Of a DNA stretch of 24,194 bases, positions 2,979 through 22,968 are shown piece after piece (within the stretch, counting starts at the first letter, position 1; every line of letters begins with the position of its first letter). This stretch comes from Nitrososphaerota archaeon. GTDB lineage: Archaea; Thermoproteota; Nitrososphaeria; Nitrososphaerales; UBA57. The stretch lies in NCBI GenBank assembly GCA_013378385.1, contig JACAFS010000010.1, forward strand, positions 1 to 24,194, written 5' to 3'. The position numbers and the translations under genes are program-made. The notes beneath the pieces are model-generated. The model was not told the origin of the DNA. It saw nothing but the letters and a program-made list of their open reading frames with translations, and did no database searches.

Positions 2979-3063
2979 TCAATAAAATAAGTTAGACAAA
3001 TGCCAAAGTTTTAGTGAGAGAAAGTAAATGATTTATTAATAGTTAGACGAAAAAATTTTAAGA

Positions 3064-3969
3064 TTGCCACGTAGAGCTTTAAGTAACAATCAAATAAAAC
3101 AGAAATTACAAAAACCTGACTGGATTAAAGTAAATTTTGTACAAGGAAAAAATTACAAGAAAGTTAAAGAAGCGTCCAAGGCATTAAATCTAAATACAGT
3201 TTGCCAGGAAGCTAATTGTCCGAATATTTACGAATGTTGGGATGGGGGAACGGCAACATTTATGTTATTAGGAGATATTTGTACAAGAGGATGTAGATTT
3301 TGTCATGTTAAATCAGGTAATCCAAAAGGAGTTGTAGATATTTTTGAACCTGAGAATACAGCAGATGCAGTAAAAGAATTAGAATTAGAGTATGTGGTAT
3401 TAACTTCAGTCGATCGAGATGATTTGAGTGATGGAGGTTCGACACATTTCGCAGAAACTGTAAATCAGATATACAAAAAGAATGAAAATACATTAATCGA
3501 AGTTTTAATACCAGATTTCTCAGGGAATTTGGATAACTTATCGATTGTTGCTAAGGCAAAACCAACAGTAATCGCTCATAATATTGAAACGACAAGAACA
3601 TTAACGCCTTTAGTAAGAGATGCCAGAGCGTCATATGATAGATCTTTAGAAGTTTTAAGAAATGTGAAAGAATTAGATTCTAATATCTATACAAAATCTT
3701 CAATAATGTTAGGATTTGGAGAGAAGTATTCAGAAGTGATAGAGGCAATGAGGGATTTAAGAAAAGCAGATGTAGATATATTAACAATTGGGCAGTATCT
3801 GCAGCCATCAGATTTTCATATTAGCATTAAACAATATGTTCATCCAGATGAATTTATTAAGTTAAAAGATGTTGCTGAAGACATGGGATTCAAGTATGTT
3901 GTATCTGGACCGTTAGTTAGAAGTTCATATAAAGCTGGAGAATACTTTGTAAAAAACCTGGTGAAATAG
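3064..3969 (+). CDS. lipA: Lipoyl synthase (radical SAM)
   Basis: 301 aa. It has the N-terminal auxiliary cluster motif CQEANCPNIYEC and the radical-SAM motif CTRGCRFC. KPDWIKV lies near the N-terminus, as in LipA. The TTG start at 3064 is the only plausible start that keeps the conserved N-terminus. Confidence 0.9.
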   Translation: MPRRALSNNQIKQKLQKPDWIKVNFVQGKNYKKVKEASKALNLNTVCQEANCPNIYECWDGGTATFMLLGDICTRGCRFCHVKSGNPKGVVDIFEPENTADAVKELELEYVVLTSVDRDDLSDGGSTHFAETVNQIYKKNENTLIEVLIPDFSGNLDNLSIVAKAKPTVIAHNIETTRTLTPLVRDARASYDRSLEVLRNVKELDSNIYTKSSIMLGFGEKYSEVIEAMRDLRKADVDILTIGQYLQPSDFHISIKQYVHPDEFIKLKDVAEDMGFKYVVSGPLVRSSYKAGEYFVKNLVK

Positions 3970-3972
3970 AAT

Positions 3973-4947
3973 ATGGAAATGACATTAAATCAAGCAGTTA
4001 AAAGTGCGTTAGATAATGAGATGGAAAAGAATGACAAGATAGTACTCATTGGAGAAGACATTGGTAAGAATGGAGGAGTTTTTAGAACAACTGAAGGATT
4101 GTATGATAAATATGGACCTAAACGAGTAATAGATACGCCATTAAATGAATCAGGAATTGTAGGTACTGCAATAGGCATGTCGCTGTATGGACTAAAACCT
4201 GTCGTTGAGATACAGTTTATGGATTTTATATTTCCTGCATTTGATCAAATTGTGTCCGACTTGGCTAAATTTAGATATAGAACAGGCGGTGCATACACAT
4301 GTCCCATGGTAATAAGAGCCCCATATGGAGGAGGAATAAAGGGTGCATCTTATCATTCTCAAAGTGGAGAAACTCATTTTGTTCATACGTCAGGACTAAA
4401 GGTTGTTGTGCCAGCAACTCCCTATGAAACGAAGGGACTATTAATTTCAGCAATCAGAGATGATGATCCAGTAATATTCTTTGAACCAAAGAGACTGTAT
4501 AGAGCTCTAAAAGAAGACGTTCCTGAAGAAGCATATACAATTCCAATTGGCGAGGCAAGAATAATGGAAGAAGGAAGTGATTTGACTTTAATTAGCTATG
4601 GTCCGATGATTCAAACTGCATTAGAAGCAATAGAAATAGTCAGAAAAGAAGGAACAAGTGTAGAATTGATTGATTTAAGAACTTTATCGCCACTAGATTC
4701 AGAAACTATAATTAAATCAGTAAAAAAGACTGGAAGAGTTGTAATTGCTCATGAAGCACCAAAAACACTAGGAATGAGTGCAGAGATTGCGGCACTTATT
4801 GCTGAGAATTGTTTAGAGTATTTAGAAGCTCCAATACAAAGAGCTACAGGATTGGACACTCCATTTCCTTATTCGTTGGAAAAAGAATATCTTCCTGATG
4901 CAAAATTTGTAAGTAAAAAAATAAAACAAACAGTAGAATATTCATAG
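3973..4947 (+). CDS. 2-oxoacid dehydrogenase complex E1 component, beta subunit (transketolase-like pyrimidine-binding and C-terminal domains)
   Basis: 324 aa. MTLNQAVKSALDNEMEKNDKIVLIGEDIGKNGGVFRTTEGLYDKYGPKRVIDTPLNESGIVG is a classic E1-beta N-terminus. The C-terminal half reads ...VELIDLRTLSPLDSETI...TGRVVIAHEAPKT. It starts 4 nt after the lipA stop. Confidence 0.9.
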   Translation: MEMTLNQAVKSALDNEMEKNDKIVLIGEDIGKNGGVFRTTEGLYDKYGPKRVIDTPLNESGIVGTAIGMSLYGLKPVVEIQFMDFIFPAFDQIVSDLAKFRYRTGGAYTCPMVIRAPYGGGIKGASYHSQSGETHFVHTSGLKVVVPATPYETKGLLISAIRDDDPVIFFEPKRLYRALKEDVPEEAYTIPIGEARIMEEGSDLTLISYGPMIQTALEAIEIVRKEGTSVELIDLRTLSPLDSETIIKSVKKTGRVVIAHEAPKTLGMSAEIAALIAENCLEYLEAPIQRATGLDTPFPYSLEKEYLPDAKFVSKKIKQTVEYS

Positions 4948-6119
4948 TGATTAGAATGGTATATAATTTTAAATTAGCAGATATTGGAGAGGGAATTGTA
5001 GAAGGAGAAGTTAGCAAATGGTATGTTAAAGTGGGAGACGTAGTAAAAGAGAATCAACCGCTTGTAGAAATAATTACAGAAAAAGTAACTGTAGAACTTC
5101 CATCGCCTGCAGATGGAACGATAACAAAGATTGGACCTGATGCAGGAAAGATTGTAAAAGTAGGTGAAGTAATAGTAGTAATTGATGATGGAAAAGAAGA
5201 CAGAGATATTGAAGAGAGTTCAAAAGATGTAATCGAGGTTGAGAAGGAGGATATAATTATAGAGAAGAATAAGAGTAAGAAAATCATTGCAACACCTGCT
5301 GTAAAACGTTTAGCAAGAGAGATGGGAGTAGATATTAACAGAGTTGCAGGAACTGAAAAAGAGGGTAGAATAACTGAAAAAGATGTTAAATTATACTCAA
5401 AATTAGAAGTACAAAGCAATGAAGAGAGAATAGCATTCAGAGGAACAAGAAGAACTATAGCAGAAAGATTATCAAAATCTTCAGATAGAGTAGTTCAGGC
5501 ATGGATAATGGAAGAGATTGATATGACCAATGTGACTGAATTAAAAAACAAATTAAAAGAAACGTCCACTGAGGATATAAAATTGACATATATGCCATTC
5601 TTTGTTAAAGCAGTAATTAGATCGCTGAAATCGAGTCCAAGAATTAATGCGTCATTAGATGAAGAGAAAGAAGACATAGTAATAAAAAAGGACTACAACA
5701 TAGGAATTGCAACAGACACAGAACAAGGTTTACTAGTGCCAGTAATAAAAAGAGCCCAAGACAAAGATATTACTACAATAGCTAAAGAGATAGAAAAGTT
5801 ATCAAGAGAAGCGAAAAAAGGGGAATTGGAATTAGAAGATACTCAAGGTGGAACATTTACTATTACAAACATCGGTGCAATTGGAGGAATATCATCTATT
5901 CCGATTGTAAATTACCCCGAAGTAGCAATATTGGCAATAAATAAGATTATGAAAAAAGTAGTATTATGGGAAGGAGAAATAGTTGCAAGAGATAGAGTTT
6001 ACCTGTCATTGTCATTCGATCACAGAGTATTAGATGGCGCAGATGTGGCACGATTTTTAAATTCAATTAGAAAATGTTTAGAAGAACCAGAGAGTCTGAT
6101 GAAGGATGAACAGACTTAA
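4947..6119 (+). CDS. 2-oxoacid dehydrogenase complex E2, dihydrolipoamide acyltransferase (lipoyl domain + peripheral-subunit-binding domain + catalytic domain)
   Basis: The lipoyl domain reads FKLADIGEGIVEGEV...LVEIITEKVTVELPSPADG, with the lipoyl-lysine in TEKV. The PSBD reads ATPAVKRLAREMGVDINRVAGTEKEGRITEKDV. The catalytic motif is SLSFDHRVLDGADVARF. The GTG at 4947 overlaps the E1-beta stop by 1 nt. ATG at 4956 (MVYNFKL...) is an equally plausible start. Confidence 0.9.
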   Translation: MIRMVYNFKLADIGEGIVEGEVSKWYVKVGDVVKENQPLVEIITEKVTVELPSPADGTITKIGPDAGKIVKVGEVIVVIDDGKEDRDIEESSKDVIEVEKEDIIIEKNKSKKIIATPAVKRLAREMGVDINRVAGTEKEGRITEKDVKLYSKLEVQSNEERIAFRGTRRTIAERLSKSSDRVVQAWIMEEIDMTNVTELKNKLKETSTEDIKLTYMPFFVKAVIRSLKSSPRINASLDEEKEDIVIKKDYNIGIATDTEQGLLVPVIKRAQDKDITTIAKEIEKLSREAKKGELELEDTQGGTFTITNIGAIGGISSIPIVNYPEVAILAINKIMKKVVLWEGEIVARDRVYLSLSFDHRVLDGADVARFLNSIRKCLEEPESLMKDEQT

Positions 6120-6759
6120 TATAATAGACTTAGGATTAACTGAATATCAACGTGCGTTAGATATACAAAAAACATTAGTTAAAAAAAGACTAGATGATTC
6201 AGTCACAGATACATTATTGTTACTTGAACATCCACATGTAATAACATTAGGAAGACAAACAAAACCCGGTGATGTTTTAGATAATTCAATGCCAATTGTC
6301 GAGATAGATAGAGGAGGAAGTGCAACTTATCACGGACCAGGTCAGCTAATCGGTTATGTAATAATTGACCTAAGAAGAAAAGGGATTTCAGTACCTACTC
6401 TCATTACGAAAATTCATGAGAGTCTAATCAGAACATTAAGTGAATTAGACATTAAAGCGGAAAGAAAAAGAAAGAAACCAGGAATTTGGATTGAACAGAA
6501 AAAGATAGCGTCAATTGGATTATCAGTAAGAAATTGGATAACATATCACGGATTTAGCCTTAATGTTGACACTGATTTAGATAAATTTAAGATTATAAGA
6601 CCATGTGGTTTTGATAGTCAGATTATGACTTCAATAAATTACAACAAGAAAAAGAAACATTCTATGGAGATAATTAAATCAAGCATAATAAGAAATTTTG
6701 TAGATGTTTTTGAATATTATAAAATTGAAAAGAAATTAAAGGCAAGCTATAGTAATTAA
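6106..6759 (+). CDS. lipB: Octanoyltransferase (lipoyl(octanoyl) transferase LipB)
   Basis: 217 aa with LLLEHPHVITLGR, the RGGSATYHGPGQL motif, KIASIG (catalytic Lys region) and PCG. It overlaps the E2 3' end by 14 nt. Confidence 0.85.
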   Translation: MNRLNIIDLGLTEYQRALDIQKTLVKKRLDDSVTDTLLLLEHPHVITLGRQTKPGDVLDNSMPIVEIDRGGSATYHGPGQLIGYVIIDLRRKGISVPTLITKIHESLIRTLSELDIKAERKRKKPGIWIEQKKIASIGLSVRNWITYHGFSLNVDTDLDKFKIIRPCGFDSQIMTSINYNKKKKHSMEIIKSSIIRNFVDVFEYYKIEKKLKASYSN

Positions 6760-7631
6760 GTGAATTCTTCTAATAACTGCTTAGCAATACGTTTACCTGT
6801 ATCGAGTGGTTGATTTACCAATGGGCCGTCTTGTAAAGCAGGTTCGTCACCATCATAAGTAGGTTTGTCAGCTTTATAGAAAACACCAATAGGAATCTTT
6901 GATTCCCATTCATAAGATTTTGATATAGCTTGTTTTATATCATTAGTATCATGTTCCTCATCCTCTAATGTATAAACACGATCACGAAACCATTGATAAG
7001 TTTGGATTTTATTATAAGTAACACAAGGACTCATGACATCAACCAATGAGAATCCTTTGTGAGAAAGTGCATTTTCTATTGTAGTAGACAAGTGATCTGC
7101 ATTACCAGAAAAACCTCTTGATACATATGTAGCACCAGAAATAAGAGCAAGGGCAATAGGATTAACAGGTACTTCTAATAAACCAGAAGGAGTGGATTTG
7201 GTAAGCATGCCTCTGTCACTAGTAGGTGAAGCTTGGCCAGTAGTTAAACCGTAAATTTGATTATTCATAACGATATATGTAATGTTGATATTTCGACGCA
7301 TCGAATGAATAAAATGACCCAATCCAATTCCATATCCATCGCCATCGCCGCCAGTTGCAATAACAGTCAAGTCGGTATTAGCAAGTTTAATACCATTAGC
7401 GATAGGAAGAGAACGACCATGAAGTCCATGGAAGGCATAAGCATTTACAAAGCCTGGAAGATTTGAAGAACATCCGATGCCAGACGATATAACAACATTT
7501 TCTGATTTAATTTTTAGACGAGCAAGAGCAGTATGTACACCACGTAAAACAGCAAAATCTCCGCAGCCTGGGCACCAAGTAGGAGTAGTTTCAGTTTTAT
7601 ACGCTTCAAGTTTAACAGGTTCGACTACCAA
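6756..7631 (-). CDS. 2-oxoacid:ferredoxin oxidoreductase, beta subunit (TPP-binding)
   Basis: 291 aa with WCPGCGDF near the N-terminus and the GGDGDGYGIGLGHF TPP/Mg motif. The TTG start lies immediately after the stop of the alpha subunit. Confidence 0.9.
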   Translation of the reverse strand: MVVEPVKLEAYKTETTPTWCPGCGDFAVLRGVHTALARLKIKSENVVISSGIGCSSNLPGFVNAYAFHGLHGRSLPIANGIKLANTDLTVIATGGDGDGYGIGLGHFIHSMRRNINITYIVMNNQIYGLTTGQASPTSDRGMLTKSTPSGLLEVPVNPIALALISGATYVSRGFSGNADHLSTTIENALSHKGFSLVDVMSPCVTYNKIQTYQWFRDRVYTLEDEEHDTNDIKQAISKSYEWESKIPIGVFYKADKPTYDGDEPALQDGPLVNQPLDTGKRIAKQLLEEFT

Positions 7632-9365
7632 CTAAATCAAGTCCTCAACTTTATCTATAATCTGCTCGGGATAAAAAGGCTCTCCGTCATATTTAAAAAG
7701 AGTGTGATTAATTTGGAAGCCGGTTTCCATAGAGATCAATTTAGACAATTGGCCAGTATAATTTGCTTCTATAATAAGAGTGTCTTTACTATTAGAAAGA
7801 ATTTCCTTAATTTCTTTTTGTAAAGGAATCAAATATTTAATATGAAGATGATTGACGCTTTTAGAATTGTTTTGAAGAATTTGTATCGCCTCATGAACAA
7901 CATTATAAGTAGAACCCCAGCTAACAATTGTAAGATCGGCATCTGCAGGTCCTTCTAATTTTGCAGCCGGAAGTTGTTCCGCGATGAATTTCATTTTTCT
8001 CATACGTTTAAGCATAATTTTTGTACGTGTTTCGGAATCAGTGAATACATCGCTAATTATATTTCCATAATCATCATGTTCGTCACTAGAAGCTTGAAAC
8101 ACAGTACCAGAAGTACCAGGGAATGCGCGAGGAGACACCCCAGTATCGGTGTATTGGAATCGTCTATAAAGTTTATCAGAATCATTTGAAGTTACAATTT
8201 CTCCACGTTCAATAGTAGAATTAAAGTCAAGATCGCCTATTGATTCCATATGTTCAGACAGAAATAGATCAGAAAGAATAATAACAGGAATTTGGAACTG
8301 ATCGGCTAGATTAAATGCTTCAATTGTTGAATAAAAACAATCCTCAATAGTAGATGGTGCAATTATAACTTTAGGAAAATCACCTTGTGAAGCGCCAATA
8401 GCTTGAAACAAATCACCTTGTTCAGTTTTGGTAGGTAGACCCGTAGAAGGACCACCACGCATAGAATTAATAACTACAATAGGAGTTTCAGTTTGTCCTG
8501 CTAAACCGATAGCTTCTGTCATTAGTGCAAAACCGCCACCAGATGTTCCAACCATAGAACGAACGCCTGCAAAAGAAGAGCCAATTGCCATGTTAATGAC
8601 AGAGATTTCGTCTTCAGCTTGTTTAACAACCATACCGGACTTTTTAGATTGGGCAATTAGGTAATGCAAAATTGAAGAAGCCGGAGTCATAGGATATGCG
8701 CAATAGAATTTACAACCAGCAAGTATAGAACCAAATCCAAGTGCTTGATTTCCAGTAAGCACCGGTCGTTTTATATTATAATCAGGATTTAAATCGAAGT
8801 CGAAATCAGGGAGATTTGATTTGGAATATTCATAACCTGCTTCGATGACTTTAAGATTGACCTCCATGACTGATTGTTTCTTTTTGCCGAAATAATCACG
8901 AATAACGCCATTCATAACATCAACGTCAAGATCAAGTAGTTGAACAAGTGAACTAAGAGCGACAGTATTTTGGAGTATAGGATTTCGTCCTATATCTTTA
9001 AGAATCTCATTGACGGGTAATGGACAGAGAATTACACCTTTAGGTATTTTATCAGGATCAGGTTTAATTTTATCACTATTATACAAAACAGCCCCGCCAG
9101 AAACTACATCGACAATGTTACGTTGGAATTCCAATGGATTTAGAGCAATGAGGAAATCAACTTTATTTCCATGAGAAAGTATCTTATCTCTTCCTGCTCG
9201 AAGTTGAAGATATATGAACCCTCCACGAATGACTGATTGATAGCTGTTATAGGCAAGAAGATGTAATCCGCTCCGTGAACAGATTTTTGCAAATGATTCA
9301 CCAGTAGAAGCAATACCATCTCCTGCGGCACCTCCGACTCGTATAACAACTTCGTGTTTTGACAT
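7632..9365 (-). CDS. 2-oxoacid:ferredoxin oxidoreductase, alpha subunit (fused gamma+alpha domains, two-subunit archaeal type)
   Basis: 577 aa. It has an N-terminal gamma-domain motif VGGAAGDGIASTGE and an alpha-domain core AYPMTPASSI...GTSGGGFALMTEAIGLAG. It forms an operon with the beta subunit with a 0-nt spacer. Confidence 0.9.
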   Translation of the reverse strand: MSKHEVVIRVGGAAGDGIASTGESFAKICSRSGLHLLAYNSYQSVIRGGFIYLQLRAGRDKILSHGNKVDFLIALNPLEFQRNIVDVVSGGAVLYNSDKIKPDPDKIPKGVILCPLPVNEILKDIGRNPILQNTVALSSLVQLLDLDVDVMNGVIRDYFGKKKQSVMEVNLKVIEAGYEYSKSNLPDFDFDLNPDYNIKRPVLTGNQALGFGSILAGCKFYCAYPMTPASSILHYLIAQSKKSGMVVKQAEDEISVINMAIGSSFAGVRSMVGTSGGGFALMTEAIGLAGQTETPIVVINSMRGGPSTGLPTKTEQGDLFQAIGASQGDFPKVIIAPSTIEDCFYSTIEAFNLADQFQIPVIILSDLFLSEHMESIGDLDFNSTIERGEIVTSNDSDKLYRRFQYTDTGVSPRAFPGTSGTVFQASSDEHDDYGNIISDVFTDSETRTKIMLKRMRKMKFIAEQLPAAKLEGPADADLTIVSWGSTYNVVHEAIQILQNNSKSVNHLHIKYLIPLQKEIKEILSNSKDTLIIEANYTGQLSKLISMETGFQINHTLFKYDGEPFYPEQIIDKVEDLI

Positions 9366-14000: not shown

Positions 14001-15493
14001 TAATATTACAATTTGTATCAAATAAAATACAAATATCAACCGATGTTCCAATGAGTGCACCAATGATGATAGAAGATTTTGGAATAATTGGATGTATTAA
14101 TACTGAAGAAAAGATAAATGGTGATTCTAGAACTTATCAGATTCTAATGGGAAGTTTGTTAAGATCAATAGATGTAGAAGTAAGGCCGGTAATTGGAGTG
14201 ATGGGAATTTCTGGAGATAATAACCAAGCTAGTGCTTTAATAAATACATGGATTGAGGCAAAATTAGATGACCAATGGGTTGTCATTGATCCCATAAACA
14301 ATGTCATAGAGACTGAAATTGTAAGACCAATAAATGTAGAGGAAGGCAAATCCTATAGACAAAGATATTCAGATATTCCTGAAAACGGAGGAATATTGTC
14401 AGCCATGATTTATGATTGTATATCTATTTGTAATGTAGATGTATCGGACGAGTATAGAGGTACAGAATCGCCAACAAAACTTGGCTCAATCTTATTTGTA
14501 GATGGAGATGTTGAGATAGAAGTAAGGGATTCAAATGGGAATTTCATTGCAAATGGAACATTGAGCAATTTCAAATGGTTTGATAAAGATGTGCCTTTGA
14601 ACAATAATAGGCAAATTAAGTTAATTTTGTTATCTGAGGGTGTAGATTTAGAATACATAATAATGAGAATCAATGGAGAATTAGGAGAAGAATTTGAAAT
14701 CAATGGAATGCGAGTAATTAATTTTGAACCGCAAACAAAGTCAATTAAATCTGCATTAATTTCAAAGACTTCATCTGACTTTAAATTAGTAGCACTGGGA
14801 GAAGATTTCATAATTGCGGAATTCGACGTACTAGAGTTCGATAAGCAACAGATTGAATTTTTATCAACTTCGTCAGTAGTAGAACATTTAGAACAAAACA
14901 GATTAAATGCAATTCGTATAACAACAATTAGTCATTCAGATATTGATGAATTAATCATACTGAAATTTTCAGATGGGATACTTTCAGAGATGGAATCCAA
15001 ATCATCAAGTATTGTTGCGATCATTAATGGAATAGAATCTCCAGTAGAGATAATTGATGATGGAGTAGTAATAACAATCATAATAGATGACCTGCAGAAT
15101 CAAAATGAGAATGTAATAACATTATACTTCGCTTCGTATACTATGAATTTTGAGCTGAGAGACCCACTAAATCAGATAATTAGAAACGCGGATATAACCA
15201 TGATAGGGGAATTTATGAATAGGACACAAACAAGTAACGAAGGAATGTTTACTAGACTAATTCCAGGAAACTATGATTTTATTGTAGAATATCGAGGAGA
15301 ACAAGAAATTATTTCCAAGAGAATTACGAATGATGATGTAGATATAGAGATCAATCTTTATCGTTCAGACTCGATGGTAATATTCTTTATAGCAATTATA
15401 TTTACAGTGATTCTAGTTGTAGCATATAGTATAGAAAAAGCGTTTGCAAGAATTTTACCGGAATATATCAACAAGAATACTGATTCATTTTAA
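11078..15493 (+). CDS. Giant multi-domain cell-surface protein (signal peptide, Ig-like/CARDB-like repeats, Big_1-like domain, InlB-B-repeat-like modules, degenerate transglutaminase-like domain, CarboxypepD_reg-like domain, C-terminal TM anchor)
   Basis: 1471 aa. The signal peptide is MRSILICCLAVVITLFLIPTAFA|ED. Repeated about 100-aa beta-sandwich modules carry the recurring pattern F.I(S).P....(V/I)..G....V.L(T)(V/I).S. The Big_1-like segment reads ITATITDASGNPVNGASVTFN. RYVFTGWND and YRFDKWSG modules are present. The TGase-like core is described in a separate feature. The C-terminus reads LRDPLNQIIRNADITM...LIPGNYDFIVEY, followed by the TM helix MVIFFIAIIFTVILVVAYSI. Confidence 0.8.
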   Translation: MRSILICCLAVVITLFLIPTAFAEDVDDSNNFDINIKTVDNTATITEIAIPKGNNKTIRIDLPKQNSAFNGTVTLEIEGNPTGLSTSFTSTSITGWQGTTGKNSTLTFAPQLSATPGSYQITIKAINSNNATDYAQRTITLYISDFEITASPSTVSVFPGGQADVTLTVSSVSDTKFSGDVQLLSASMSGATITYVDDVVNVPENGAAYATVRITADSNAQSNGDGVSVIIKAKIGDRERPVTIIVKIESNPLSLGLAVSPNPAIVFQPTFITATITDASGNPVNGASVTFNRMAGNGTFADGGTFTTLTTSSDGKISAAFTPKTKETLSIRVSAEKTNYLSGDEIIQIAVKGGFVMSVTPAQEQINAGDSKAVTLTITSTDGFSSPVELSYEDVISGFTVSFSEVSLIPEANGALSTTVTIFVSDNVQSGDAIIVIKGRSGGLTADVSVGINVPKAEFTLSISESQNEITTWQGDIVKIDMVLISIGGFDGTVQLSTNIDDKPNMDIEFSPSSVSLSSGESKQVSLLITTTSATEPIDRLPVIITATSLTSETTTTAWLQILELFEIVIDSNSRNDGSRIATIVIDGVITQPEQLPITKYLKENSELTVKITQDIIDETEGTRYVFTGWNDQTNTLEKTIEINSPLTVIAEFDKQHYINIRSTPLGSMIGLLDIEGSGWHKENALIELNTDDILVVTEDESRYRFDKWSGSIESNDRNIELLVDGPKLIYADYILQYRIIKIIEPSFIADIITTFNEQWIDSGTELLLETTKKADEYGFMQWTITGSSFDITRTTNPTTITVNEPLTIRIQYDLLPMVNIESVRMADNGFEGEGSQIWVELLNTELRGGYVIIKTSTSINGLIIGPDQQEIYLAPGESKLFAITMNYTKAGSGSIDITLEKTGSQDNKFKKEFKIFTLNDKREITNIGIALSSKYLQQIDQWMIPNEKVKICSSEILEQSRVGEDESELQKAKVILQFVSNKIQISTDVPMSAPMMIEDFGIIGCINTEEKINGDSRTYQILMGSLLRSIDVEVRPVIGVMGISGDNNQASALINTWIEAKLDDQWVVIDPINNVIETEIVRPINVEEGKSYRQRYSDIPENGGILSAMIYDCISICNVDVSDEYRGTESPTKLGSILFVDGDVEIEVRDSNGNFIANGTLSNFKWFDKDVPLNNNRQIKLILLSEGVDLEYIIMRINGELGEEFEINGMRVINFEPQTKSIKSALISKTSSDFKLVALGEDFIIAEFDVLEFDKQQIEFLSTSSVVEHLEQNRLNAIRITTISHSDIDELIILKFSDGILSEMESKSSSIVAIINGIESPVEIIDDGVVITIIIDDLQNQNENVITLYFASYTMNFELRDPLNQIIRNADITMIGEFMNRTQTSNEGMFTRLIPGNYDFIVEYRGEQEIISKRITNDDVDIEINLYRSDSMVIFFIAIIFTVILVVAYSIEKAFARILPEYINKNTDSF
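14120..14290 (+). other. Transglutaminase-like (papain-fold) core domain with all-but-Asp of the Cys-His-Asp triad substituted
   Basis: GDSRTYQILMGSLLRSIDVEVRPVIGV aligns to the TGase-core consensus G.C..FA.L...LLRA.GIPAR.V.GY, with Ser in place of the catalytic Cys. NTWIEAKLDDQWVVIDP aligns to HAW.EVY..G.GW..FDP, with Asn in place of His and the Asp retained. The spacing is S-39-N-15-D. Confidence 0.6.
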
Positions 15494-16824
15494 TTAGATT
15501 TTAACAACTTATTGAGGTTTCGATCGTATGTAGTGATTGTATTCTCAAGTTTTTTAAGGTCGTCTTCACTAATTTGGAATTCATTCCACAAATCAAGTTC
15601 TCTAATATATTCTTTAAAACGATCATAACCAGGTTTAACTGTTTCAACGATGTTTTCTAATTTAGCACCGCCAAGAAGTAATAATACGTCCAATCTATCA
15701 GAATTCTCTTTAACAGGAACAATTTGAATCAAAGATTCTTTCAAGGAAGGGAAACGTTTTCGATTCCAGGCATTATAATCATCTTCTAGACGCTTAGCAG
15801 ATACAGTATTAAGAACAGATTCAGGAACACGAATAACAACAATACTCAATATGATAGATTCGTACTGGAAGGGAGAAAGCGGAAAATATGCTGCATCATC
15901 TAGTATATTTTTTAAATTGTCATAAATTTCATAACTTCGACCATAAACATAAACCGGTGAGAAAGCTAGAACTTTGAGAGACTTTGCCATTTTGCCAAGA
16001 CTATTTATTGCATGTCCATTACTAGTTAACAAACTAAGAATTCGTGGAACTAAAATTTCGTATCCTAATTTTTTACCTGAACGATCTATTCCAATCATTT
16101 TGCTAAGTGCATTACCTTGTAAAACAATAAGCATATCTCCCGAAGTCTTTTGATTTTTTACTAAACGAGAAATGCCGCAATACGCATTGAATTGTACTTG
16201 ATCAGTATCATTATTAGATGGGAGAGAAGCAAGAACTATTCGTGAAGATTTAGGATTAATGTGTTTAATCTTTTTGATTAAGGGAAGGGTGAGTCCTGAA
16301 ACTAGTGTTTCTCCGATTGACCCAGTAATAATAGCAGTCTGTTCGTCAATATTATTATTAATACCAACCCGACGAATTTTATCTTCAAATTTATCAAATT
16401 CAGAAAAGGTATTTTCGAATTCACTCCAAGTATTGATATTAGAATCATAATCTTCATCGATTAGATAATAATTAGGATCATTAGAAGTAGATTCAGTTGA
16501 ATAAGAAGAATTTTTTTCAGAATCAATAAAATCAACTAATAAATGATTTAATCGTTCAGGATGAACAGAATTTTTAAATGAAAGAAGCGTCTGTGAGCCA
16601 AAATCCCCAATACCAAAATTAATTACTTTATGGAGATTTTTGACTTTGACTGAATTAAGATTATCGATCAAAAGTGAAAGTTCTTTTTTAAAATTTATTA
16701 AAGGAAGATTACAAGTTGCACATTCTTCTAAACCACGAACATTCTTGTGACCATCAGGGCATAAAATAAAAGAATTATAAGAAAGTTTTCTAGATGTAGG
16801 ACGAGTCATTACAATGTATATCAT
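15490..16824 (-). CDS. Uncharacterised protein: N-terminal zinc-ribbon (C-x3-H-x8-C-x2-C) plus a divergent FtsZ/tubulin-like core with degenerate nucleotide-binding motifs
   Basis: 444 aa. The zinc-ribbon segment is CPDGHKNVRGLEECATC. VINFGIGDFGSQTLLSF aligns to the FtsZ G1 box (IkViGvGGgGsNavnrM). AIITGSIGETLVSGLTLPLIKKIK aligns to the T4 segment vFvTaGmGGGTGTGaaPviAeiAK, but GGGTGTG is replaced by GSIGETLVSG. IVLASLPSNND...NAYCGISRL...DMLIVLQGNAL aligns to vaVVTkPFsFEG...A..Gi.eL...DtlIviPNdrL. The T7-equivalent is GHAINSLGKMAKSL and lacks the acidic residues of NxDxxD. The call is by-eye alignment only. The ORF itself is well supported by its length and lack of overlap. Confidence 0.55.
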   Translation of the reverse strand: MIYIVMTRPTSRKLSYNSFILCPDGHKNVRGLEECATCNLPLINFKKELSLLIDNLNSVKVKNLHKVINFGIGDFGSQTLLSFKNSVHPERLNHLLVDFIDSEKNSSYSTESTSNDPNYYLIDEDYDSNINTWSEFENTFSEFDKFEDKIRRVGINNNIDEQTAIITGSIGETLVSGLTLPLIKKIKHINPKSSRIVLASLPSNNDTDQVQFNAYCGISRLVKNQKTSGDMLIVLQGNALSKMIGIDRSGKKLGYEILVPRILSLLTSNGHAINSLGKMAKSLKVLAFSPVYVYGRSYEIYDNLKNILDDAAYFPLSPFQYESIILSIVVIRVPESVLNTVSAKRLEDDYNAWNRKRFPSLKESLIQIVPVKENSDRLDVLLLLGGAKLENIVETVKPGYDRFKEYIRELDLWNEFQISEDDLKKLENTITTYDRNLNKLLKSN

Positions 16825-16893: not shown

Positions 16894-17874
16894 ATGAAAC
16901 GACAAGACAAAGATATTGAATATAAATCCGTAATACTAGAACAAAGTAACAAGAATGTAAAAGGTCGTTTAATAATAACAGGAAATAAAATTTTATTTCA
17001 GAAAAAAGTGGGTTTAATATCAAAAAAATATGAAACTGAATTTCATACAATAATTGAATCAATAAATAAAATCGAAAAAGAAGGTTATTCGAAAATTTTA
17101 ATTACAGATAAAGAAAAAAATATTACAGTAAAATTTATTTTAGATACGCCAGTTGAGGCGAATGAAATTAGTGATAAGATTAATGATACAATAAATCAAT
17201 TAATTCTCGATACTGAAGAAGAGAAGAAGGATGAAATAGATCAGAGAATCAATCTAGCAAATTATTCAACCTATGTGTATGATATTACATTAGAATTATG
17301 GACTACAATTAGTTTGTTATTCATGATTATGAAAGAAACAATAGACAATAATTGGGATGAAGTTGATATAAAGGTGGAAGAATTCAAAGAGATAGTAGCA
17401 GAATTAGATAATAATAAAGTGAATATCAATGGTGATGCAAAAAATATCATAACGTCAATTAAAAGTAGAGATGATTTAACAATAGTGAATTCAATCAGAG
17501 TGTTGATAAAAACATTAGGCGAGTCTTTACAAGGTCCTGTACCATATAGTGAATGGAAAGAAATCAGTTCATCCATGAAACCAAGTTGGGAGAATTTACA
17601 ATTTTTTTATCTCTTTACGGTTGCAATATTTGAATCGTATTATTTTGAGAACATGAACATGGATGAAGAAAGGAAATCATCGAAAGCAAATGTAATTAAA
17701 TACATTCCAATAGTTAATGGACATTTTTCAGATCAGTTATTTGACAAAACAAAATATTCGACAAAAACACTTAGAGAAAGAAACGATACAATTGAGCAAT
17801 TAATAGATGAAACTACTGATAAATTGCAAGAGTTGTTAAAAGATTCTTTGAAGAAAGTAAGTTTGTTAAATTAG
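16894..17874 (+). CDS. Uncharacterised soluble protein: N-terminal PH/GRAM-like beta-sandwich (about residues 10-95) plus an acidic linker and a C-terminal all-helical domain
   Basis: 326 aa. SVILEQSNKNVKGRLIITGNKILFQKK....ETEFHTIIESINKIEKEGYSKILITDKEKNITVKFIL resembles bacterial/archaeal PH (bPH/GRAM) domains (G.L.iT..ri.F....... followed by beta strands and a terminal helix EANEISDKINDTINQLI). The remainder is helical and Glu/Lys/Asp-rich. The fold assignment is tentative. Confidence 0.45.
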   Translation: MKRQDKDIEYKSVILEQSNKNVKGRLIITGNKILFQKKVGLISKKYETEFHTIIESINKIEKEGYSKILITDKEKNITVKFILDTPVEANEISDKINDTINQLILDTEEEKKDEIDQRINLANYSTYVYDITLELWTTISLLFMIMKETIDNNWDEVDIKVEEFKEIVAELDNNKVNINGDAKNIITSIKSRDDLTIVNSIRVLIKTLGESLQGPVPYSEWKEISSSMKPSWENLQFFYLFTVAIFESYYFENMNMDEERKSSKANVIKYIPIVNGHFSDQLFDKTKYSTKTLRERNDTIEQLIDETTDKLQELLKDSLKKVSLLN

Positions 17875-17876
17875 TG

Positions 17877-20240
17877 TTATTTATTTTTCAACAATGTATT
17901 TTTAGATGTATTGAAGGTAACCGTGGATTTACCATAAGCAAATAGTTGTAAGTACTGTACTGCGTATTTACTCCTTACAGGCAATTGCCTAGGAATAACT
18001 TTTCCTTCGATACTAATTAATGAAGAGATTAACGGTTCAATATTAACATAATTTAAGATAAATTCATTCATAATGAGGTATTTCTTGAGTGTAGTGGCTT
18101 CATTTTCAATAATTTTTATACCATATTCGATATTCGATAATCTATCAGACAAATCAGTTTGTGCCTGATCGTCAAGTCGTCTGAGAGAAGATTCGATTTC
18201 AGAAATCAGTTGTGTGTCCTTACCCCATTGAAAATCTAAAGGAACACGTGTATCATTACGTTTTTCAAATTCTCTCAATAATCGTAATAATTCGCCAATA
18301 ACAGTATGTGTACCTGTTTCAAGAAATTGTAACATAGACATAACATCAGGCAGATATAGAATTCCAGTAAAGGTAGAAAGTTGTTCATAATTAATCTGAA
18401 TCTGTTTAGCAACATCAATAGTTTCAATGTCGGTTGGGGTTTGACCCAGAGATTCATTCAATGGAATTATGTTATATTCGTGCATTTTTAATGAACGTTC
18501 AATTAAACGTTTAAGATTTGTAATTGTTTTTTGCATTACTTGATTATAGCGTTTATGAAGAGATGCAATTGTAATAAGAAGAGTATCTAGAGCTTGTGAG
18601 CCTTTTCCTTGTAGAATGAAGTTTTCACTAATAGAAATAGAAGTGAATTCTAGTGTGGGGTCAAATTCTTTTTGCACAACAGTAACAAGACTTTCTGCAA
18701 CACGAATAGTATTTTGAGATACCTCAAGAAAATAGTCGTTCAATTCACGTTGATTATTTAAGACGTCGTCAAATGTAAGATCAGAACTATAAGATAAATG
18801 GTCAGAGTTTATAGATGGAAGATTAGCAATACCAAGTTTTTCAAGCTTAGTTAGCATATCTTGACATTTATCAAGTTGATCGTTATGGTAATTGATGACC
18901 TTAAGTTCTAATGAATCATTTCCAGATAGTTGAGAATCAGAGAAAACGCGAATTTTCTCAGATTTTTCTTTGAGTCCTGAATATGAGAGCGTATATAATC
19001 CATCAAGAGTAATAGAAAGTTCTTCTTTGAATTCGCCAAGCGAGGTTATTGAATTACTAATATCAATACCAGGACATATTTCCTGAATTTCCTCTAGTTG
19101 TGAACCAGAATCATCAATACTACTGAGATAATTGTTGCATTGTTCTTTGACTAATTCAGTAAGTTCAGCACCTTTTGATCTTCTAGAGAGATTAATAGAG
19201 GACAATGACATTGCAACACCAATTGTACCCGCAGCAAGAATAGATTTGAATGAATCAGATGAATTAAAACCAGTAGAATAGTCAAAAGGGATTTGCATGG
19301 CTTGTAAAGGAACAATAAAGAATAGTGTGCCAGCAATAAGAGTAATTACATAAGAATAACTGGGCAATATACTTAATTCAATACCGCGTTCGTCCATCCA
19401 CGGCCATAGTTTATCTAGAATAGATATAAAAGAAAGAGACAAAATCATAAGGATTGGAATAAATAACAAAACAAGATTATCGATTAGAACAAACAAATAT
19501 GAATTAAAGAGGTTATTTTGTAGAGAAAGGAAACCGGAAAGAGATTCACTAAGAGCAAATTCATTGAAAGACAACAACCTAGGACTAGTTTCATAAACAA
19601 TTTGTGAGAACATAGGCATAGTAGAATCAGATATAAGAGAATAGATTACCTGTGGCCTAGTATTTGGATTAATTGATAATATTTCAGCTAATCCAAGTGC
19701 ATTAAATGGAATAAACATAATTAGGAATGAAAATAAAAGTCCAATATTTTTTGAGAGATTATCAGTTTTTTTAATTATTGCATAAACAAGCATAAGAGGT
19801 ATTGAAACAAAATAATATGGAGTCAAGAATAAAGTTCCAGCAGTTAAACCAAATATTAGAGTGAAGATATTATCTGGGTCATTTAATGCTTTAGCAATAA
19901 AGACGCCAACAACGAAGAAACTAAGTAATAACCACCAGAAAGGTATTGATGTCTGATAAAGATAAGCAGGAATAAACAGAATAAATGAGATCAGAAATCC
20001 GGAAGTTATTGACCTGAATCCAATAAAAGCAGAAAGAATTGAAATAAGAAATACAATAGGAATTGGATATAATGGAACAGTGTATAGAATAATTAAACTA
20101 AATAAGAAGATTGAACTAGCAAATAGAATCTTTTTTAGATTTTTACGATATTGTTGTTCTCGTTCAATAGCATTATCGATATCAGAAGATGGTCGGAATC
20201 CAACTTTATCAATTACAGAAGAATTGATTAATTTAGACAA
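17877..20240 (-). CDS. Uncharacterised polytopic membrane protein (about 9-11 TM helices, residues about 37-350) with an approximately 430-aa C-terminal cytoplasmic helical domain
   Basis: 787 aa. Hydrophobic segments include ILFASSIFLFSLIILYTV, IPIVFLISILSAFIGF, GFLISFILFIPAYLY, FWWLLLSFFVVGVFIA, IFTLIFGLTAGTLFL, YYFVSIPLMLVYAII, IGLLFSFLIMFIPFNALGLA, YLFVLIDNLVLLFIPILMILSLSFISIL, YVITLIAGTLFFIVPL and ILAAGTIGVAMSLSSI. I recognise no family motif in the C-terminal half. It lies 25 nt downstream of the 900-aa gene on the same strand. Confidence 0.75.
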   Translation of the reverse strand: MSKLINSSVIDKVGFRPSSDIDNAIEREQQYRKNLKKILFASSIFLFSLIILYTVPLYPIPIVFLISILSAFIGFRSITSGFLISFILFIPAYLYQTSIPFWWLLLSFFVVGVFIAKALNDPDNIFTLIFGLTAGTLFLTPYYFVSIPLMLVYAIIKKTDNLSKNIGLLFSFLIMFIPFNALGLAEILSINPNTRPQVIYSLISDSTMPMFSQIVYETSPRLLSFNEFALSESLSGFLSLQNNLFNSYLFVLIDNLVLLFIPILMILSLSFISILDKLWPWMDERGIELSILPSYSYVITLIAGTLFFIVPLQAMQIPFDYSTGFNSSDSFKSILAAGTIGVAMSLSSINLSRRSKGAELTELVKEQCNNYLSSIDDSGSQLEEIQEICPGIDISNSITSLGEFKEELSITLDGLYTLSYSGLKEKSEKIRVFSDSQLSGNDSLELKVINYHNDQLDKCQDMLTKLEKLGIANLPSINSDHLSYSSDLTFDDVLNNQRELNDYFLEVSQNTIRVAESLVTVVQKEFDPTLEFTSISISENFILQGKGSQALDTLLITIASLHKRYNQVMQKTITNLKRLIERSLKMHEYNIIPLNESLGQTPTDIETIDVAKQIQINYEQLSTFTGILYLPDVMSMLQFLETGTHTVIGELLRLLREFEKRNDTRVPLDFQWGKDTQLISEIESSLRRLDDQAQTDLSDRLSNIEYGIKIIENEATTLKKYLIMNEFILNYVNIEPLISSLISIEGKVIPRQLPVRSKYAVQYLQLFAYGKSTVTFNTSKNTLLKNK

Positions 20241-20265: not shown

Positions 20266-22968
20266 TTATGAACTGGTATCCTCAATCCGTTTAGTGCTTT
20301 TAAGTTCATGATCAGGAGATACATGAACGCCTTGTTCTAATAAATAGGAATGAGATAGGAGTCTTTCTCCTTGAGTAGTTTGATTATACAGGATATCCAT
20401 TTCCTTGAATGTTTCGAGATCTTTGACACTAGCTTTTGCAGCAATAATTAGAAATCTCATAGTCCAAGGATCAGTTGAATCGACTTCGCGTATGTAAATA
20501 CTTTTGGAAGCGTCTTGTTTTACATAACCAGACAACATAGTTTTAGCTTCGGAATCAAGGTCTTTATCCCATAAACCACGAGGGCTTACTACGGTGAACC
20601 ATAGATAATCAGTTCGGTATTCAGCAGTTAGACCCATTGTAGCAGGAATTCTGAATATACCAAGGGCGCCAGAGAGATATTCCTTAAGATGTTGTCTATC
20701 AATAATTTCGTTGAGCATATTCTCTTGTGTAAGAGACGCTTCATCTTCCAGAAGTATACGTTGCATAATTTTTAGTTGCTCGCCTTCGGTTAATTCCGCA
20801 ACACGATCATAATAACCACGATCTCGCATAGACTCATTCATTTTCTCGTAATAAGTATTTTGAAGAGTTGAAGCTTCAGTTAATAATTTTCTATATGAAG
20901 ATGCTACTTCAAATTTTCTTTCAATGTTTTGATATGCAGAAAGTTTTGACTGGATAGTTTTACGTTCTTCAGTAATCGCAGTGAGTTGAGAATCTATAAT
21001 ATTTAATTCATGTTCGAGATCTGATGCTTTACCTTGCATATACTTCTTTTTTGGACCTAAGAATCCAAATCTAATTTTCTTTGCTTGTCCACCGACTCTA
21101 CCTTTTTCTTGTTCACGACTGCGTTTTTTAATTGTAAGGTTTTCTTCTTCAACTTTTAGTTCCTCTGTTCTTTCGGTTGTTAGTCTTTTCATAACTTGAC
21201 AATCGCCGAGCCGTGCGTCGAGAGTCTTAACTTCAGTTTCAACAGGAGACAGTAAAGAAGACAGAAGTGCAAAGTTTATGACAAGTTCAGGATTACTAAT
21301 TCGTTCTACTGCAATTTGCATTCGTTTATGTAATTCAGTTTTTTCTGATTTGGCAAGTGTTTTATTAAGTTTATCCGCAAGATTACTGATATTAAGATAT
21401 AATTGTAAACCAGTAAGGTATTGATCAATAAGTTCAACTAGATTAATAGTATCGGTAATAATTTGATTTTGTCTTGGAGTAAGTTTTTGAGCACTAGGCA
21501 ATGTGTTGCGTAAGTCTTCGGTTAATTGCTTAACTTTATCTTGTAAAGTATTATAGTTTTGAGATAAGTTACTACTAAGAGATACTAATTCTTCGGATAG
21601 AGTTCTTATCCTAGCTTCTACAGTACCATCTGCAGCATCCAATCCTATTGATAAAACGGATTTGGATAAGTCATTTACTAAAGTACGGGTAGCAGTTTCT
21701 GCTCCACGAATATGCATGAGTAATTCGGCATCCATAGAAACCCCCTCTCCAAGGAAGCTTTGGACGTTTTCTTCAAATCTTGATTCTTCATAGGTATTTT
21801 TCTCGATAGAGAGACCTCGATATACGGCTTTTAATTCATCGTACGATGAATTCATTACATCGATAAGTCCTTTAGATTGTTCATTTCCTGAGTAAATTTC
21901 TAATTTTTCTTTTCTTAGTTCACGTAAACGGTCTAATTTATCAAGATATATTTTAGTGAGTTCAATAAATTCAGCAACTGGATAAGAAACTTTCAGTGTA
22001 GAAATTACATTGACCCATTTTCCTCCCAAATCTACATTAGAACCAATATTACTGAATAAATCTGCCAAGTCAAAATTCAAAGATTTCATCAATATATCAA
22101 CTATAGCCTCATCGACTAACTTACGAGCGTCAAGTACACTTCCAGTTCTACTATAAGCAGGACCAAGAGACATCATAAGAAAAGCCGTAAACGGATTTTT
22201 ATATGGTTCTCCATAAGTGCTAACAACATTATGATTTAGAGATCGATCAATAGCATATTCATGTTCAAGAAGAGAAGAATAACAAGAAGCTCCTTTAGCA
22301 GGAGGGTCGTCGCCACTACAAGGAAGAATAGCTAATCCAATAATTGGTATTCCACTGCCTATTTTTTTTCTCAAATGTCTTGCAAAGTCTAATGCAGTAC
22401 CACTACCTGAACCGCCACCAAGGCCATAAACCAAAAATATAATTGGCTGAATAGTAGCCGTAAAGACATGTTCTTTAAATTTATCCATATAACCGTCGAC
22501 AAGTTTGAGATGATGATAATTCAATCCATAAATTGCTTTAGATAAAGCGCGTTTTCTTCCAACTCCTCCAGCAAGCGGAGGAATTTCCATAGACGAAGAG
22601 AGCCAAGGTGTGTACTGTTCAGGTACAACTGCACCTTCACGTTCAAGAAAATCTGGATATGCTTTAATAAAATCAAACATTGATTCCGGAGTAGGGAATT
22701 TCATAGTTTTACTTTCAAGATGTATTTTATCAGTAGGAATTCCATTGGTTTTTAGAGTCTCAGATAGATTCTTGTAAGCCATATCAAGACTACGTATATC
22801 ATGATCTGCAACATCTAATGCAAGCAGTGAAATTTTAATCCCGTCGATTTTCAGGAGAGGGAGTAAATTATCGTGATTTTGTACAAATGATTCAATTACA
22901 TTTGCTCCTGTGCCTCCTAAGCCAACAATTTGTATAGAACTAGTATAATCTGCAGCCAAAGCAATCAC
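20266..22968 (-). CDS. Large FtsZ/tubulin-superfamily GTPase (N-terminal about 330 aa) fused to an approximately 450-aa coiled-coil region, a basic patch and a C-terminal globular domain
   Basis: 900 aa. The G1 box is IQIVGLGGTGANVIESF (nt 22906-22923). The T3-like segment is AGGVGRKRALSKA. The T4 tubulin signature is IIFLVYGLGGGSGSGTALDFARHL (GGGSGSG, nt 22399-22419). IIGLAILPCSGDD is equivalent to the FtsZ VVTKPFsFEG strand. The T7-like segment SLNFDLADL matches NxDxxD. Residues about 335-760 are heptad-rich and Glu/Lys/Leu-rich. The basic segment is KKRSREQEKGRVGGQAKKIRFGFLGPKKKYMQGK (nt 21028-21129). The GTG start overlaps the upstream stop by 1 nt. Confidence 0.8.
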   Translation of the reverse strand: MIALAADYTSSIQIVGLGGTGANVIESFVQNHDNLLPLLKIDGIKISLLALDVADHDIRSLDMAYKNLSETLKTNGIPTDKIHLESKTMKFPTPESMFDFIKAYPDFLEREGAVVPEQYTPWLSSSMEIPPLAGGVGRKRALSKAIYGLNYHHLKLVDGYMDKFKEHVFTATIQPIIFLVYGLGGGSGSGTALDFARHLRKKIGSGIPIIGLAILPCSGDDPPAKGASCYSSLLEHEYAIDRSLNHNVVSTYGEPYKNPFTAFLMMSLGPAYSRTGSVLDARKLVDEAIVDILMKSLNFDLADLFSNIGSNVDLGGKWVNVISTLKVSYPVAEFIELTKIYLDKLDRLRELRKEKLEIYSGNEQSKGLIDVMNSSYDELKAVYRGLSIEKNTYEESRFEENVQSFLGEGVSMDAELLMHIRGAETATRTLVNDLSKSVLSIGLDAADGTVEARIRTLSEELVSLSSNLSQNYNTLQDKVKQLTEDLRNTLPSAQKLTPRQNQIITDTINLVELIDQYLTGLQLYLNISNLADKLNKTLAKSEKTELHKRMQIAVERISNPELVINFALLSSLLSPVETEVKTLDARLGDCQVMKRLTTERTEELKVEEENLTIKKRSREQEKGRVGGQAKKIRFGFLGPKKKYMQGKASDLEHELNIIDSQLTAITEERKTIQSKLSAYQNIERKFEVASSYRKLLTEASTLQNTYYEKMNESMRDRGYYDRVAELTEGEQLKIMQRILLEDEASLTQENMLNEIIDRQHLKEYLSGALGIFRIPATMGLTAEYRTDYLWFTVVSPRGLWDKDLDSEAKTMLSGYVKQDASKSIYIREVDSTDPWTMRFLIIAAKASVKDLETFKEMDILYNQTTQGERLLSHSYLLEQGVHVSPDHELKSTKRIEDTSS
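22399..22419 (-). other. Tubulin/FtsZ signature motif (GGGSGSG) of the 900-aa protein
   Basis: The reverse complement of 22399-22419 is ggtggcggttcaggtagtggt, which translates to G G G S G S G. This is one conservative change from the canonical GGGTG(T/S)G. Confidence 0.8.

Follow-up and report, generated by a model that had tools for sequence, protein, structure and literature searches.

A zinc-ribbon tubulin-fold protein with a degenerate phosphate-binding loop is encoded alongside an FtsZl1-type GTPase in Thaumarchaeota

We report a divergent tubulin-superfamily protein encoded in a 24,194-nucleotide (nt) stretch of contig JACAFS010000010.1 from the Nitrososphaerota archaeon assembly GCA_013378385.1 (hereinafter the window). 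The protein, with an open reading frame of 444 amino acids (aa), is predicted by structure modeling to adopt a complete tubulin fold, namely a GTPase domain, an activation domain and C-terminal helices, preceded by an N-terminal zinc ribbon. It defines a new subfamily of the tubulin superfamily, and its gene sits within a new architecture of the FtsZl1 system, the conserved core of which comprises the FtsZl1 GTPase, two membrane proteins and a partner tubulin such as this one. In the thaumarchaeal clade to which the window protein belongs, the T4 loop, which binds the nucleotide phosphates in tubulins and FtsZ, no longer has its canonical form, and the gene is nevertheless under strong purifying selection. 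We consider it likely, with some reserve, that the protein is a partner in the FtsZl1 membrane system that no longer binds or hydrolyzes GTP in the canonical way and acts as a non-catalytic, structural subunit.

The fold emerged from the family as a whole. The window protein by itself gave a sub-threshold match to the Pfam Tubulin model PF00091 (E=7e-5; 23.6 bits, cutoff 33) that spans profile positions 2–189 of 190, and a single-sequence search of the PDB with it returned no match. When a profile of its orthologs was run exhaustively against 1.84 billion representatives with HMMER, 107 relatives were recovered; 28 diverse full-length members were assembled into an alignment, A2, which was used for the final AlphaFold2 (AF2) model and for the profile searches. 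PF00091 was matched by 28/28 family members tested (E<=0.01, best 6e-14), and the A2 profile retrieved, among PDB sequences, archaeal FtsZ (4e-18) and CetZ (1e-16), as well as TubZ and BtubB. The predicted local distance difference test (pLDDT) score of the model rose from 48 with 13 close orthologs to 86.6 with A2, with a predicted template-modeling score (pTM) of 0.81. A Foldseek search of the PDB with this model, the check proposed with an earlier sequence-only reading of the window, found the tubulin fold at E~1e-15: the model matched gamma- and beta-tubulin as well as BtubB and CetZ (E 1e-15 to 1e-14; template-modeling scores 0.6–0.68). These matches run across approximately 450 columns and therefore span both the GTPase domain and the activation domain, together with helix H7 and the C-terminal helices. 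Thus, the family profile and the structure model together make the assignment to the tubulin superfamily secure.

Within that superfamily, the sequence-only reading had taken the protein for an FtsZ-like paralog. The superfamily fold holds, whereas the closer affinity is tubulin- and CetZ-like: the FtsZ_C domain (PF12327) was not found in a Pfam search of the protein; its T3 motif, NxW, is of the tubulin type, and its H5 reads FNA; the NxDFAD-type T7 of FtsZ proper is absent from it; and its best fold matches are tubulins. For these reasons “tubulin-fold” is a better label than “FtsZ-like”. Nor is it itself an FtsZl1 protein, since the 444-aa protein does not match Tubulin_2 (PF13809), the domain which, along with a length of ~760–1200 aa, delimits that group.

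The N-terminal knuckle pair of the form C-x3-H-x8-C-x2-C, which had been spotted by eye, is indeed present, and 13 orthologs of 34–97% identity keep all four of its ligands (C22, H26, C35 and C38) without exception. The pattern persists as CPxGHxN-x6-CxxCG in relatives of 22–30% identity (groups A and B, below), the two knuckles are modeled as short beta hairpins with pLDDT ~90, and the Pfam model Zn_Ribbon_1 is matched in 2/28 relatives. Based on these conserved Cys and His ligands, the N-terminal domain is predicted to be a zinc ribbon with two knuckles.

The by-eye placement of the nucleotide-binding motifs along the FtsZ/tubulin core likewise agrees with both the profile alignments and the family alignment. 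The glycine-rich FGIGDFG stretch occupies aa 70–76 (nt 16597–16617; the interval of nt 16597–16614 given earlier was 3 nt short) and lies where the GxGxxG T1 loop is expected, with G71, G73, G76 and S77 invariant in 13 orthologs, as is W133 farther along. The T4 loop does read GSIGETLVSG, as had been claimed: it matches the LGGGTGSG of relatives column for column, with GETLVSG in the GGGTGSG columns, and profile alignments to PDB entries put the T4 loop of tubulin at the same place. Of the five glycines in the signature, three have been replaced in this loop, as has the threonine, the new residues being E, T, V and L; G171, S176 and G177 are retained, and G171 and E172 are invariant across 13 orthologs. 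The T7 loop and H8, which contain the INSLGKM stretch, were located from the secondary structure of the model (H7 at aa 255–267, H8 at aa 270–282) and from the alignment of the family’s T7 segment to the NxDFAD of FtsZ; aa 268–283 hold no Asp or Glu in any register. The window protein carries neither the T4 signature GGG-T-G(S/T)-G nor a T7/H8 catalytic acid.

The family, which amounts to ~107 representative clusters, for the most part keeps the canonical GGGTGSG, and its members can be sorted into four groups. Group A, with a zinc ribbon and a T4 of the form G-E-x-L/I-x-S/A-G, includes the window and loci L001–L010 and consists of thaumarchaeal sequences only. Group B combines the zinc ribbon with a canonical or near-canonical GGGTGSG. 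Group C, from Bathyarchaeota, has no zinc ribbon and a T4 of the form W/S-D/E-G-I/V-G-S-A. Group D also lacks the ribbon; its T4 is canonical and its T7 follows the pattern IDxxDY, and some of its members bear the Joint Genome Institute (JGI) label “CetZ”. A neighbor-joining tree with bootstrap renders group A monophyletic (bootstrap 100) and joins it to B1, a canonical-T4 subset of group B (96). The degenerate group A thus falls within zinc-ribbon relatives that are themselves canonical, which makes the T4 loss a derived state; the ancestral partner tubulin would have had a canonical GGGTGSG, which was lost in one thaumarchaeal clade. The T7 acids tell a different story. They are absent in the marine branch of group A, are represented as D..E in its other thaumarchaeal members, and are absent in most of group B despite its canonical T4. 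Since most canonical-T4 relatives are without them too, their absence is largely a family trait. The earlier observation of a T7 free of acidic residues stands, and this feature is not tied to the T4 loss.

In the family sequences with a non-canonical T4, a Glu or Asp occupies the second T4 glycine in 46/58 cases. They come from groups A and C, along with a few members of B1 in which T4 is canonical apart from this residue (GEGTGSG or GDGTGSG); examples are aa 172 of the window protein, L036, L037, L042, L043 and P0087–P0116. This distribution suggests that an acid at this position marks a recurrent route of degeneration. One might speculate that it serves as an intramolecular phosphate mimic.

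The gene itself is real and functional. The open reading frame is present as first described, and we found 61 close homologs of its product. Because most orthologs begin at the equivalent of Met6 (nt 16809), and because an AT-rich, TATA-like box lies ~25 nt 5′ of that ATG, nt 16809 is the probable true start, which would yield a protein of 439 aa. The ratio of non-synonymous to synonymous substitution rates (dN/dS) is 0.05–0.12 against L005, L001 and L004, which equals that of the neighboring FtsZl1 gene and lies below the values for the cluster's remaining genes. The expectation that the degenerate form is maintained by purifying selection is thereby upheld, and a decaying pseudogene is ruled out.

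The sequence-only reading had further tied this gene to that of a 900-aa GTPase encoded 3.4 kb away. This functional link is supported by synteny in every informative locus, although the real unit is not a gene pair but a conserved system of four to five genes (Table 1). The 900-aa protein scores 36.3 bits against Tubulin_2 (cutoff 27) in its N-terminal part, its remaining ~600 aa match no tubulin-family model, and its length and the N-terminal position of the domain agree with the FtsZl1 architecture described previously (PMC2875224). Its T1 (GLGGTGAN; GLGGxGxN/D across loci) and T4 (GGGSGSG) are canonical in every locus examined. The gene for the 309-aa membrane protein lies upstream of FtsZl1 in all complete loci, and that for the 787-aa membrane protein is kept in all loci, including those of Bathyarchaeota. 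The 326-aa protein yields weak matches to GRAM and bacterial PH-like domains (E ~0.03–0.04, in two to three orthologs), and its gene adjoins that of the zinc-ribbon tubulin in L001–L009, L011 and every informative metagenome locus; it is inverted in the thaumarchaeal loci and co-directional outside that clade. PDB profile searches with the 326-aa and 309-aa proteins gave only spurious coiled-coil matches to hemagglutinin HA2.

Table 1. Positions in the window of the zinc-ribbon tubulin gene, its motifs and the linked genes
Feature	Position (nt)	Strand	Basis
Zinc-ribbon tubulin-fold protein	15490..16824	(-)	Open reading frame, homologs, AF2 model, Foldseek, dN/dS
Zinc knuckle pair C22-x3-H26-x8-C35-x2-C38, CPDGHKNVRGLEECATC, aa 22-38	16711..16761	(-)	Ortholog alignment, model
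T1-like loop FGIGDFGS, aa 70-77	16594..16617	(-)	Aligns with GxGxxG T1 of FtsZ, CetZ
Degenerate T4 loop GSIGETLVSG, aa 168-177	16294..16323	(-)	Column alignment with relatives
T7 loop and H8, aa 268-283, SNGHAINSLGKMAKSL, no acidic residue	15976..16023	(-)	Model secondary structure, alignment
326-aa partner: weak GRAM/PH-like N-terminus and helical domain	16894..17874	(+)	Adjacency, weak GRAM/bPH matches
787-aa polytopic membrane protein: hydrophobic segments in first ~320 aa, then ~470 aa soluble	17877..20240	(-)	Hydropathy
900-aa FtsZl1-type GTPase, N-terminal FtsZ-like domain	20266..22968	(-)	Pfam Tubulin_2
309-aa bitopic membrane protein: signal/transmembrane segment, extracellular domain, transmembrane segment, ~45-aa cytoplasmic helix	22968..23897	(-)	Hydropathy, alignment
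Predicted surface protein of 1471 aa with a signal peptide, Ig-like domains, a transglutaminase-like core and a C-terminal transmembrane segment	11078..15493	(+)	Pfam, hydropathy

The linkage holds well beyond the window. A scan of species-representative genomes, with two search patterns specific to close orthologs, located the family in 12 uncultured metagenome-assembled genomes (MAGs) and in no cultured strain; in 11 genomic loci the 309-aa, FtsZl1 and 787-aa genes accompany the zinc-ribbon tubulin, as does the 326-aa gene except in L012. A metagenome scan with the group B alignment added 53 loci, among them 15 complete ones and a further 14 that a contig end truncates yet that agree with the pattern; none contradicts it, and wherever upstream sequence is available, the zinc-ribbon loci show the co-directional order 309-aa, FtsZl1, 787-aa, 326-aa, tubulin. 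The cluster is thus conserved in 40/40 informative loci (29 metagenomic, 11 genomic), a constancy suggestive of a membrane machine with two tubulins that has so far gone undescribed. Bacterial loci are found among them, one with a WalK-like histidine kinase gene in its flank and another, L011, binned as Dehalococcoidia. The zinc-free group C proteins of Bathyarchaeota, too, adjoin genes for FtsZl1 and for 309-like and 787-like proteins. Across such distant lineages, the gene set and order are kept at identities of 25–28% for the partner and 43–47% for FtsZl1. The 1471-aa surface protein behaves differently: its gene is convergent with that of the tubulin, with a 4-nt overlap, and adjoins it only in the thaumarchaeal loci L001–L010, making it a possible lineage-specific accessory.

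We also weighed two other contexts for the cluster. PADLOC gave no defense-system match for any cluster protein, and the idea of a defense island was dropped; a scan of viral contigs gave only two distant tubulin-like matches, and a mobile-element or viral origin was likewise set aside.

Several further observations accompany these loci. More than 720 Bathyarchaeota proteins without a Pfam annotation are T4-degenerate, zinc-free tubulin homologs; in L069 (10001–11200), L070, L071 and their neighbors such homologs stand beside genes for FtsZl1 (893 aa) and 309-like and 787-like proteins. L002 and L003 are two contigs of one MAG with identical 21-kb copies of the whole region, probably due to assembly or binning redundancy. 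Among the zinc-free canonical relatives, one with the JGI label “CetZ” (L013, 4792–11260) shares its operon with an AAA ATPase gene and another gene of the tubulin family, which may be the ESCRT-like “Halo_adaptin” system of PMC10936438. L050, L051 and L053 feature a triad of a ~400-aa canonical tubulin-like protein, a protein of ~450 aa with weak similarity to the 787-aa one and a group D tubulin; in L054 and L055 only the two tubulin-family genes of such a triad are present, the match to the middle gene being absent. Finally, the window encodes at positions 1281–9365 an acetolactate-synthase-like thiamine pyrophosphate enzyme, lipoyl synthase, the E1-beta and E2 subunits of a 2-oxoacid dehydrogenase, LipB and a 2-oxoacid:ferredoxin oxidoreductase. 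Together with a GC content of ~33%, this gene set may match the heterotrophic marine Thaumarchaeota described in PMC7300363.

What might a tubulin without a phosphate loop do beside FtsZl1? In FtsZ and tubulin structures the backbone amides of the T4 glycines bind the nucleotide phosphates, and single replacements of these glycines impair binding. As these very glycines are replaced in group A, where T4 became G-E-x-L/I-x-S/A-G, we infer that canonical GTP binding has been lost and that the protein most likely neither binds nor hydrolyzes GTP in the canonical way. We hence propose that it belongs, as the “partner tubulin”, to a conserved FtsZl1 system associated with the membrane, in which it is most likely a non-catalytic structural subunit that pairs with, caps or nucleates the assemblies which the GTP-competent FtsZl1 drives. 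Because the two genes are linked, and because FtsZl1 is reported to be devoid of T6-H7 and the activation domain, the partner would supply a complementary, full tubulin body to FtsZl1 at the membrane. This presumes a physical contact between the two proteins, which the synteny makes plausible. As for the zinc ribbon, it is the obvious candidate for the part that would dock onto membrane or adaptor components. We also entertained, and then downgraded, the idea that the partner’s T7 trans-activates FtsZl1, as the T7 acids are unconserved in most of the family.

Certain observations weigh against this proposal. The T7 acids are gone in most canonical-T4 relatives, and their loss is accordingly not specific to a pseudo-GTPase state. 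The tie between the partner and FtsZl1 is one of genomic linkage, and in the window the inverted 326-aa gene means that the five genes do not form one transcript. More to the point, the share of invariant columns in group A is 36% in T1, 29% in T5/H5 and 38% in S6-T6, compared with 17% overall; the zinc ribbon (36%) and the activation domain (29%) also have high values, and conservation is lowest in T7/H8 (6%) and T3 (8%). The conservation of the T1, T5 and T6 loops would be in keeping with a pocket that continues to bind some ligand, and because these loops are among the best-conserved segments of the group, the protein is best spoken of as a putative pseudo-GTPase.

The same conservation lends some substance to an explanation that we regard as unlikely though worth serious attention: that the partner still binds nucleotide, possibly with slow hydrolysis through its non-canonical T4, with Glu172 coordinating Mg2+ or the nucleotide, and that it polymerizes by itself. 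Within the clade the T1 glycines, T5/H5 (DTDQxQFNA) and S6-T6 are invariant or enriched in invariant columns, G171, S176 and G177 of T4 are kept, and the presence of GEGTGSG and GDGTGSG in otherwise canonical relatives suggests that the acid is compatible with a working loop. Nevertheless, replacement has struck the threonine and three of the signature’s five glycines, that is, residues of the loop that holds the phosphates and in which single changes already impair binding, and T7/H8 is the least conserved segment of all. A bolder extension of the partner proposal is in our judgment similarly doubtful. It posits an undescribed two-tubulin membrane machine, made up of the FtsZl1 GTPase, its full-fold partner and the two membrane proteins and distributed across Thaumarchaeota, Bathyarchaeota and Chloroflexi-like bacteria, in which the partner turned into a pseudo-GTPase at least twice by way of a Glu/Asp phosphate mimic; the T4 acid would lock the subunit in a nucleotide-independent, assembly-competent state, and it would cap or nucleate in a way that recalls gamma-tubulin or the N-site of alpha-tubulin.

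If the contact with FtsZl1 is given up altogether, the protein could be an independent, nucleotide-free filament or scaffold, the cluster merely reflecting a common pathway such as the handling of the envelope or of surface proteins. The convergent surface-protein gene in all thaumarchaeal loci would speak for this, as would the two genes that intervene between the tubulin and FtsZl1, one of them inverted in the window. Yet the surface-protein adjacency is lost outside Thaumarchaeota, and the gene set and order survive at the low identities given above for very distant lineages; we therefore deem it improbable. Least probable by far is that the protein is an ortholog of the thaumarchaeal “FtsZ” Nmar_1262, and so already described. 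Nmar_1262 of N. maritimus comes from the same phylum, is also without GGGTGTG and NVDFAD (PMC3684127), and is reported neither to localize to the division site nor to polymerize, but its T4 reads AGKAGSA (PMC3684127), a motif absent from the 107 family representatives and from all other fetched sequences. Furthermore, it was not found in the zinc-ribbon tubulin family at E<=1e-3, the family’s restriction to uncultured MAGs, in a scan whose patterns are specific to close orthologs, points the same way, and neither a zinc ribbon nor an FtsZl1 context is reported for it. The two are alike as thaumarchaeal tubulin-superfamily proteins without the T4 and T7 signatures. The findings on thaumarchaeal FtsZ of Pelve et al. 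2011, which the sequence-only reading had invoked, thus concern another paralog, and the literature on that protein (Pelve 2011; Ng 2013, PMC3684127) should not be applied to this gene.

FtsZl1 proteins have reportedly been known since 2010 as the most divergent relatives of tubulin, and we know of no function or partner assigned to them since. The present analysis identifies a constant companion for them, which has exactly the half of the fold reported to be absent from FtsZl1. It also brings to light natural variants, in abundant uncultured archaea of the deep ocean and sediments, in which the GTP loop is lost and the protein strongly constrained, may bear on how tubulin-family heteromers with one non-catalytic site arise, and allows the unannotated Bathyarchaeota proteins noted above to be recognized as tubulin homologs. 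Reviews mention “non-canonical” tubulin-superfamily proteins in Thaumarchaeota and give no detail, and our literature search found no description of the zinc-ribbon tubulin or of this operon.

Comparison with known systems sets the new architecture in relief. Makarova and Koonin (2010, PMC2875224) placed FtsZl1 at the center of a predicted membrane-remodeling system, encoded with membrane proteins of unknown function, and reported it to be without T6-H7, T7 and the activation half of the fold. Co-encoded membrane proteins are common to their operons and the window cluster. However, the vWA proteins, OmpA-like proteins, kinases and P-loop GTPase of the published operons do not occur in the window cluster, no full-length zinc-ribbon tubulin-fold partner is listed among the published components A1, A2 and B1–B9, and that data set held no thaumarchaeal FtsZl1. 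CetZ resembles the zinc-ribbon tubulin in its full tubulin-like fold without an FtsZ_C domain: its structures 3zid, 4b45 and 4b46 rank with the best matches by sequence profile and by fold, and it lends its name, through the JGI label, to some distant zinc-free relatives. It differs in its canonical T4, in having neither a zinc ribbon nor a linkage to FtsZl1, and in being euryarchaeal, whereas the present clade is thaumarchaeal, bathyarchaeal and bacterial. A parallel to the pairing itself is offered by alpha/beta-tubulin, BtubA/B and the Asgard AtubA/B, where two paralogs are co-encoded and one site is non-catalytic; indeed, BtubB and AtubB are among the top matches of the zinc-ribbon tubulin. 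There, GTP is bound by both subunits, each of which has the full fold; in the window, by contrast, FtsZl1 has only the N-terminal GTPase domain and its putative partner is the one without a phosphate loop.

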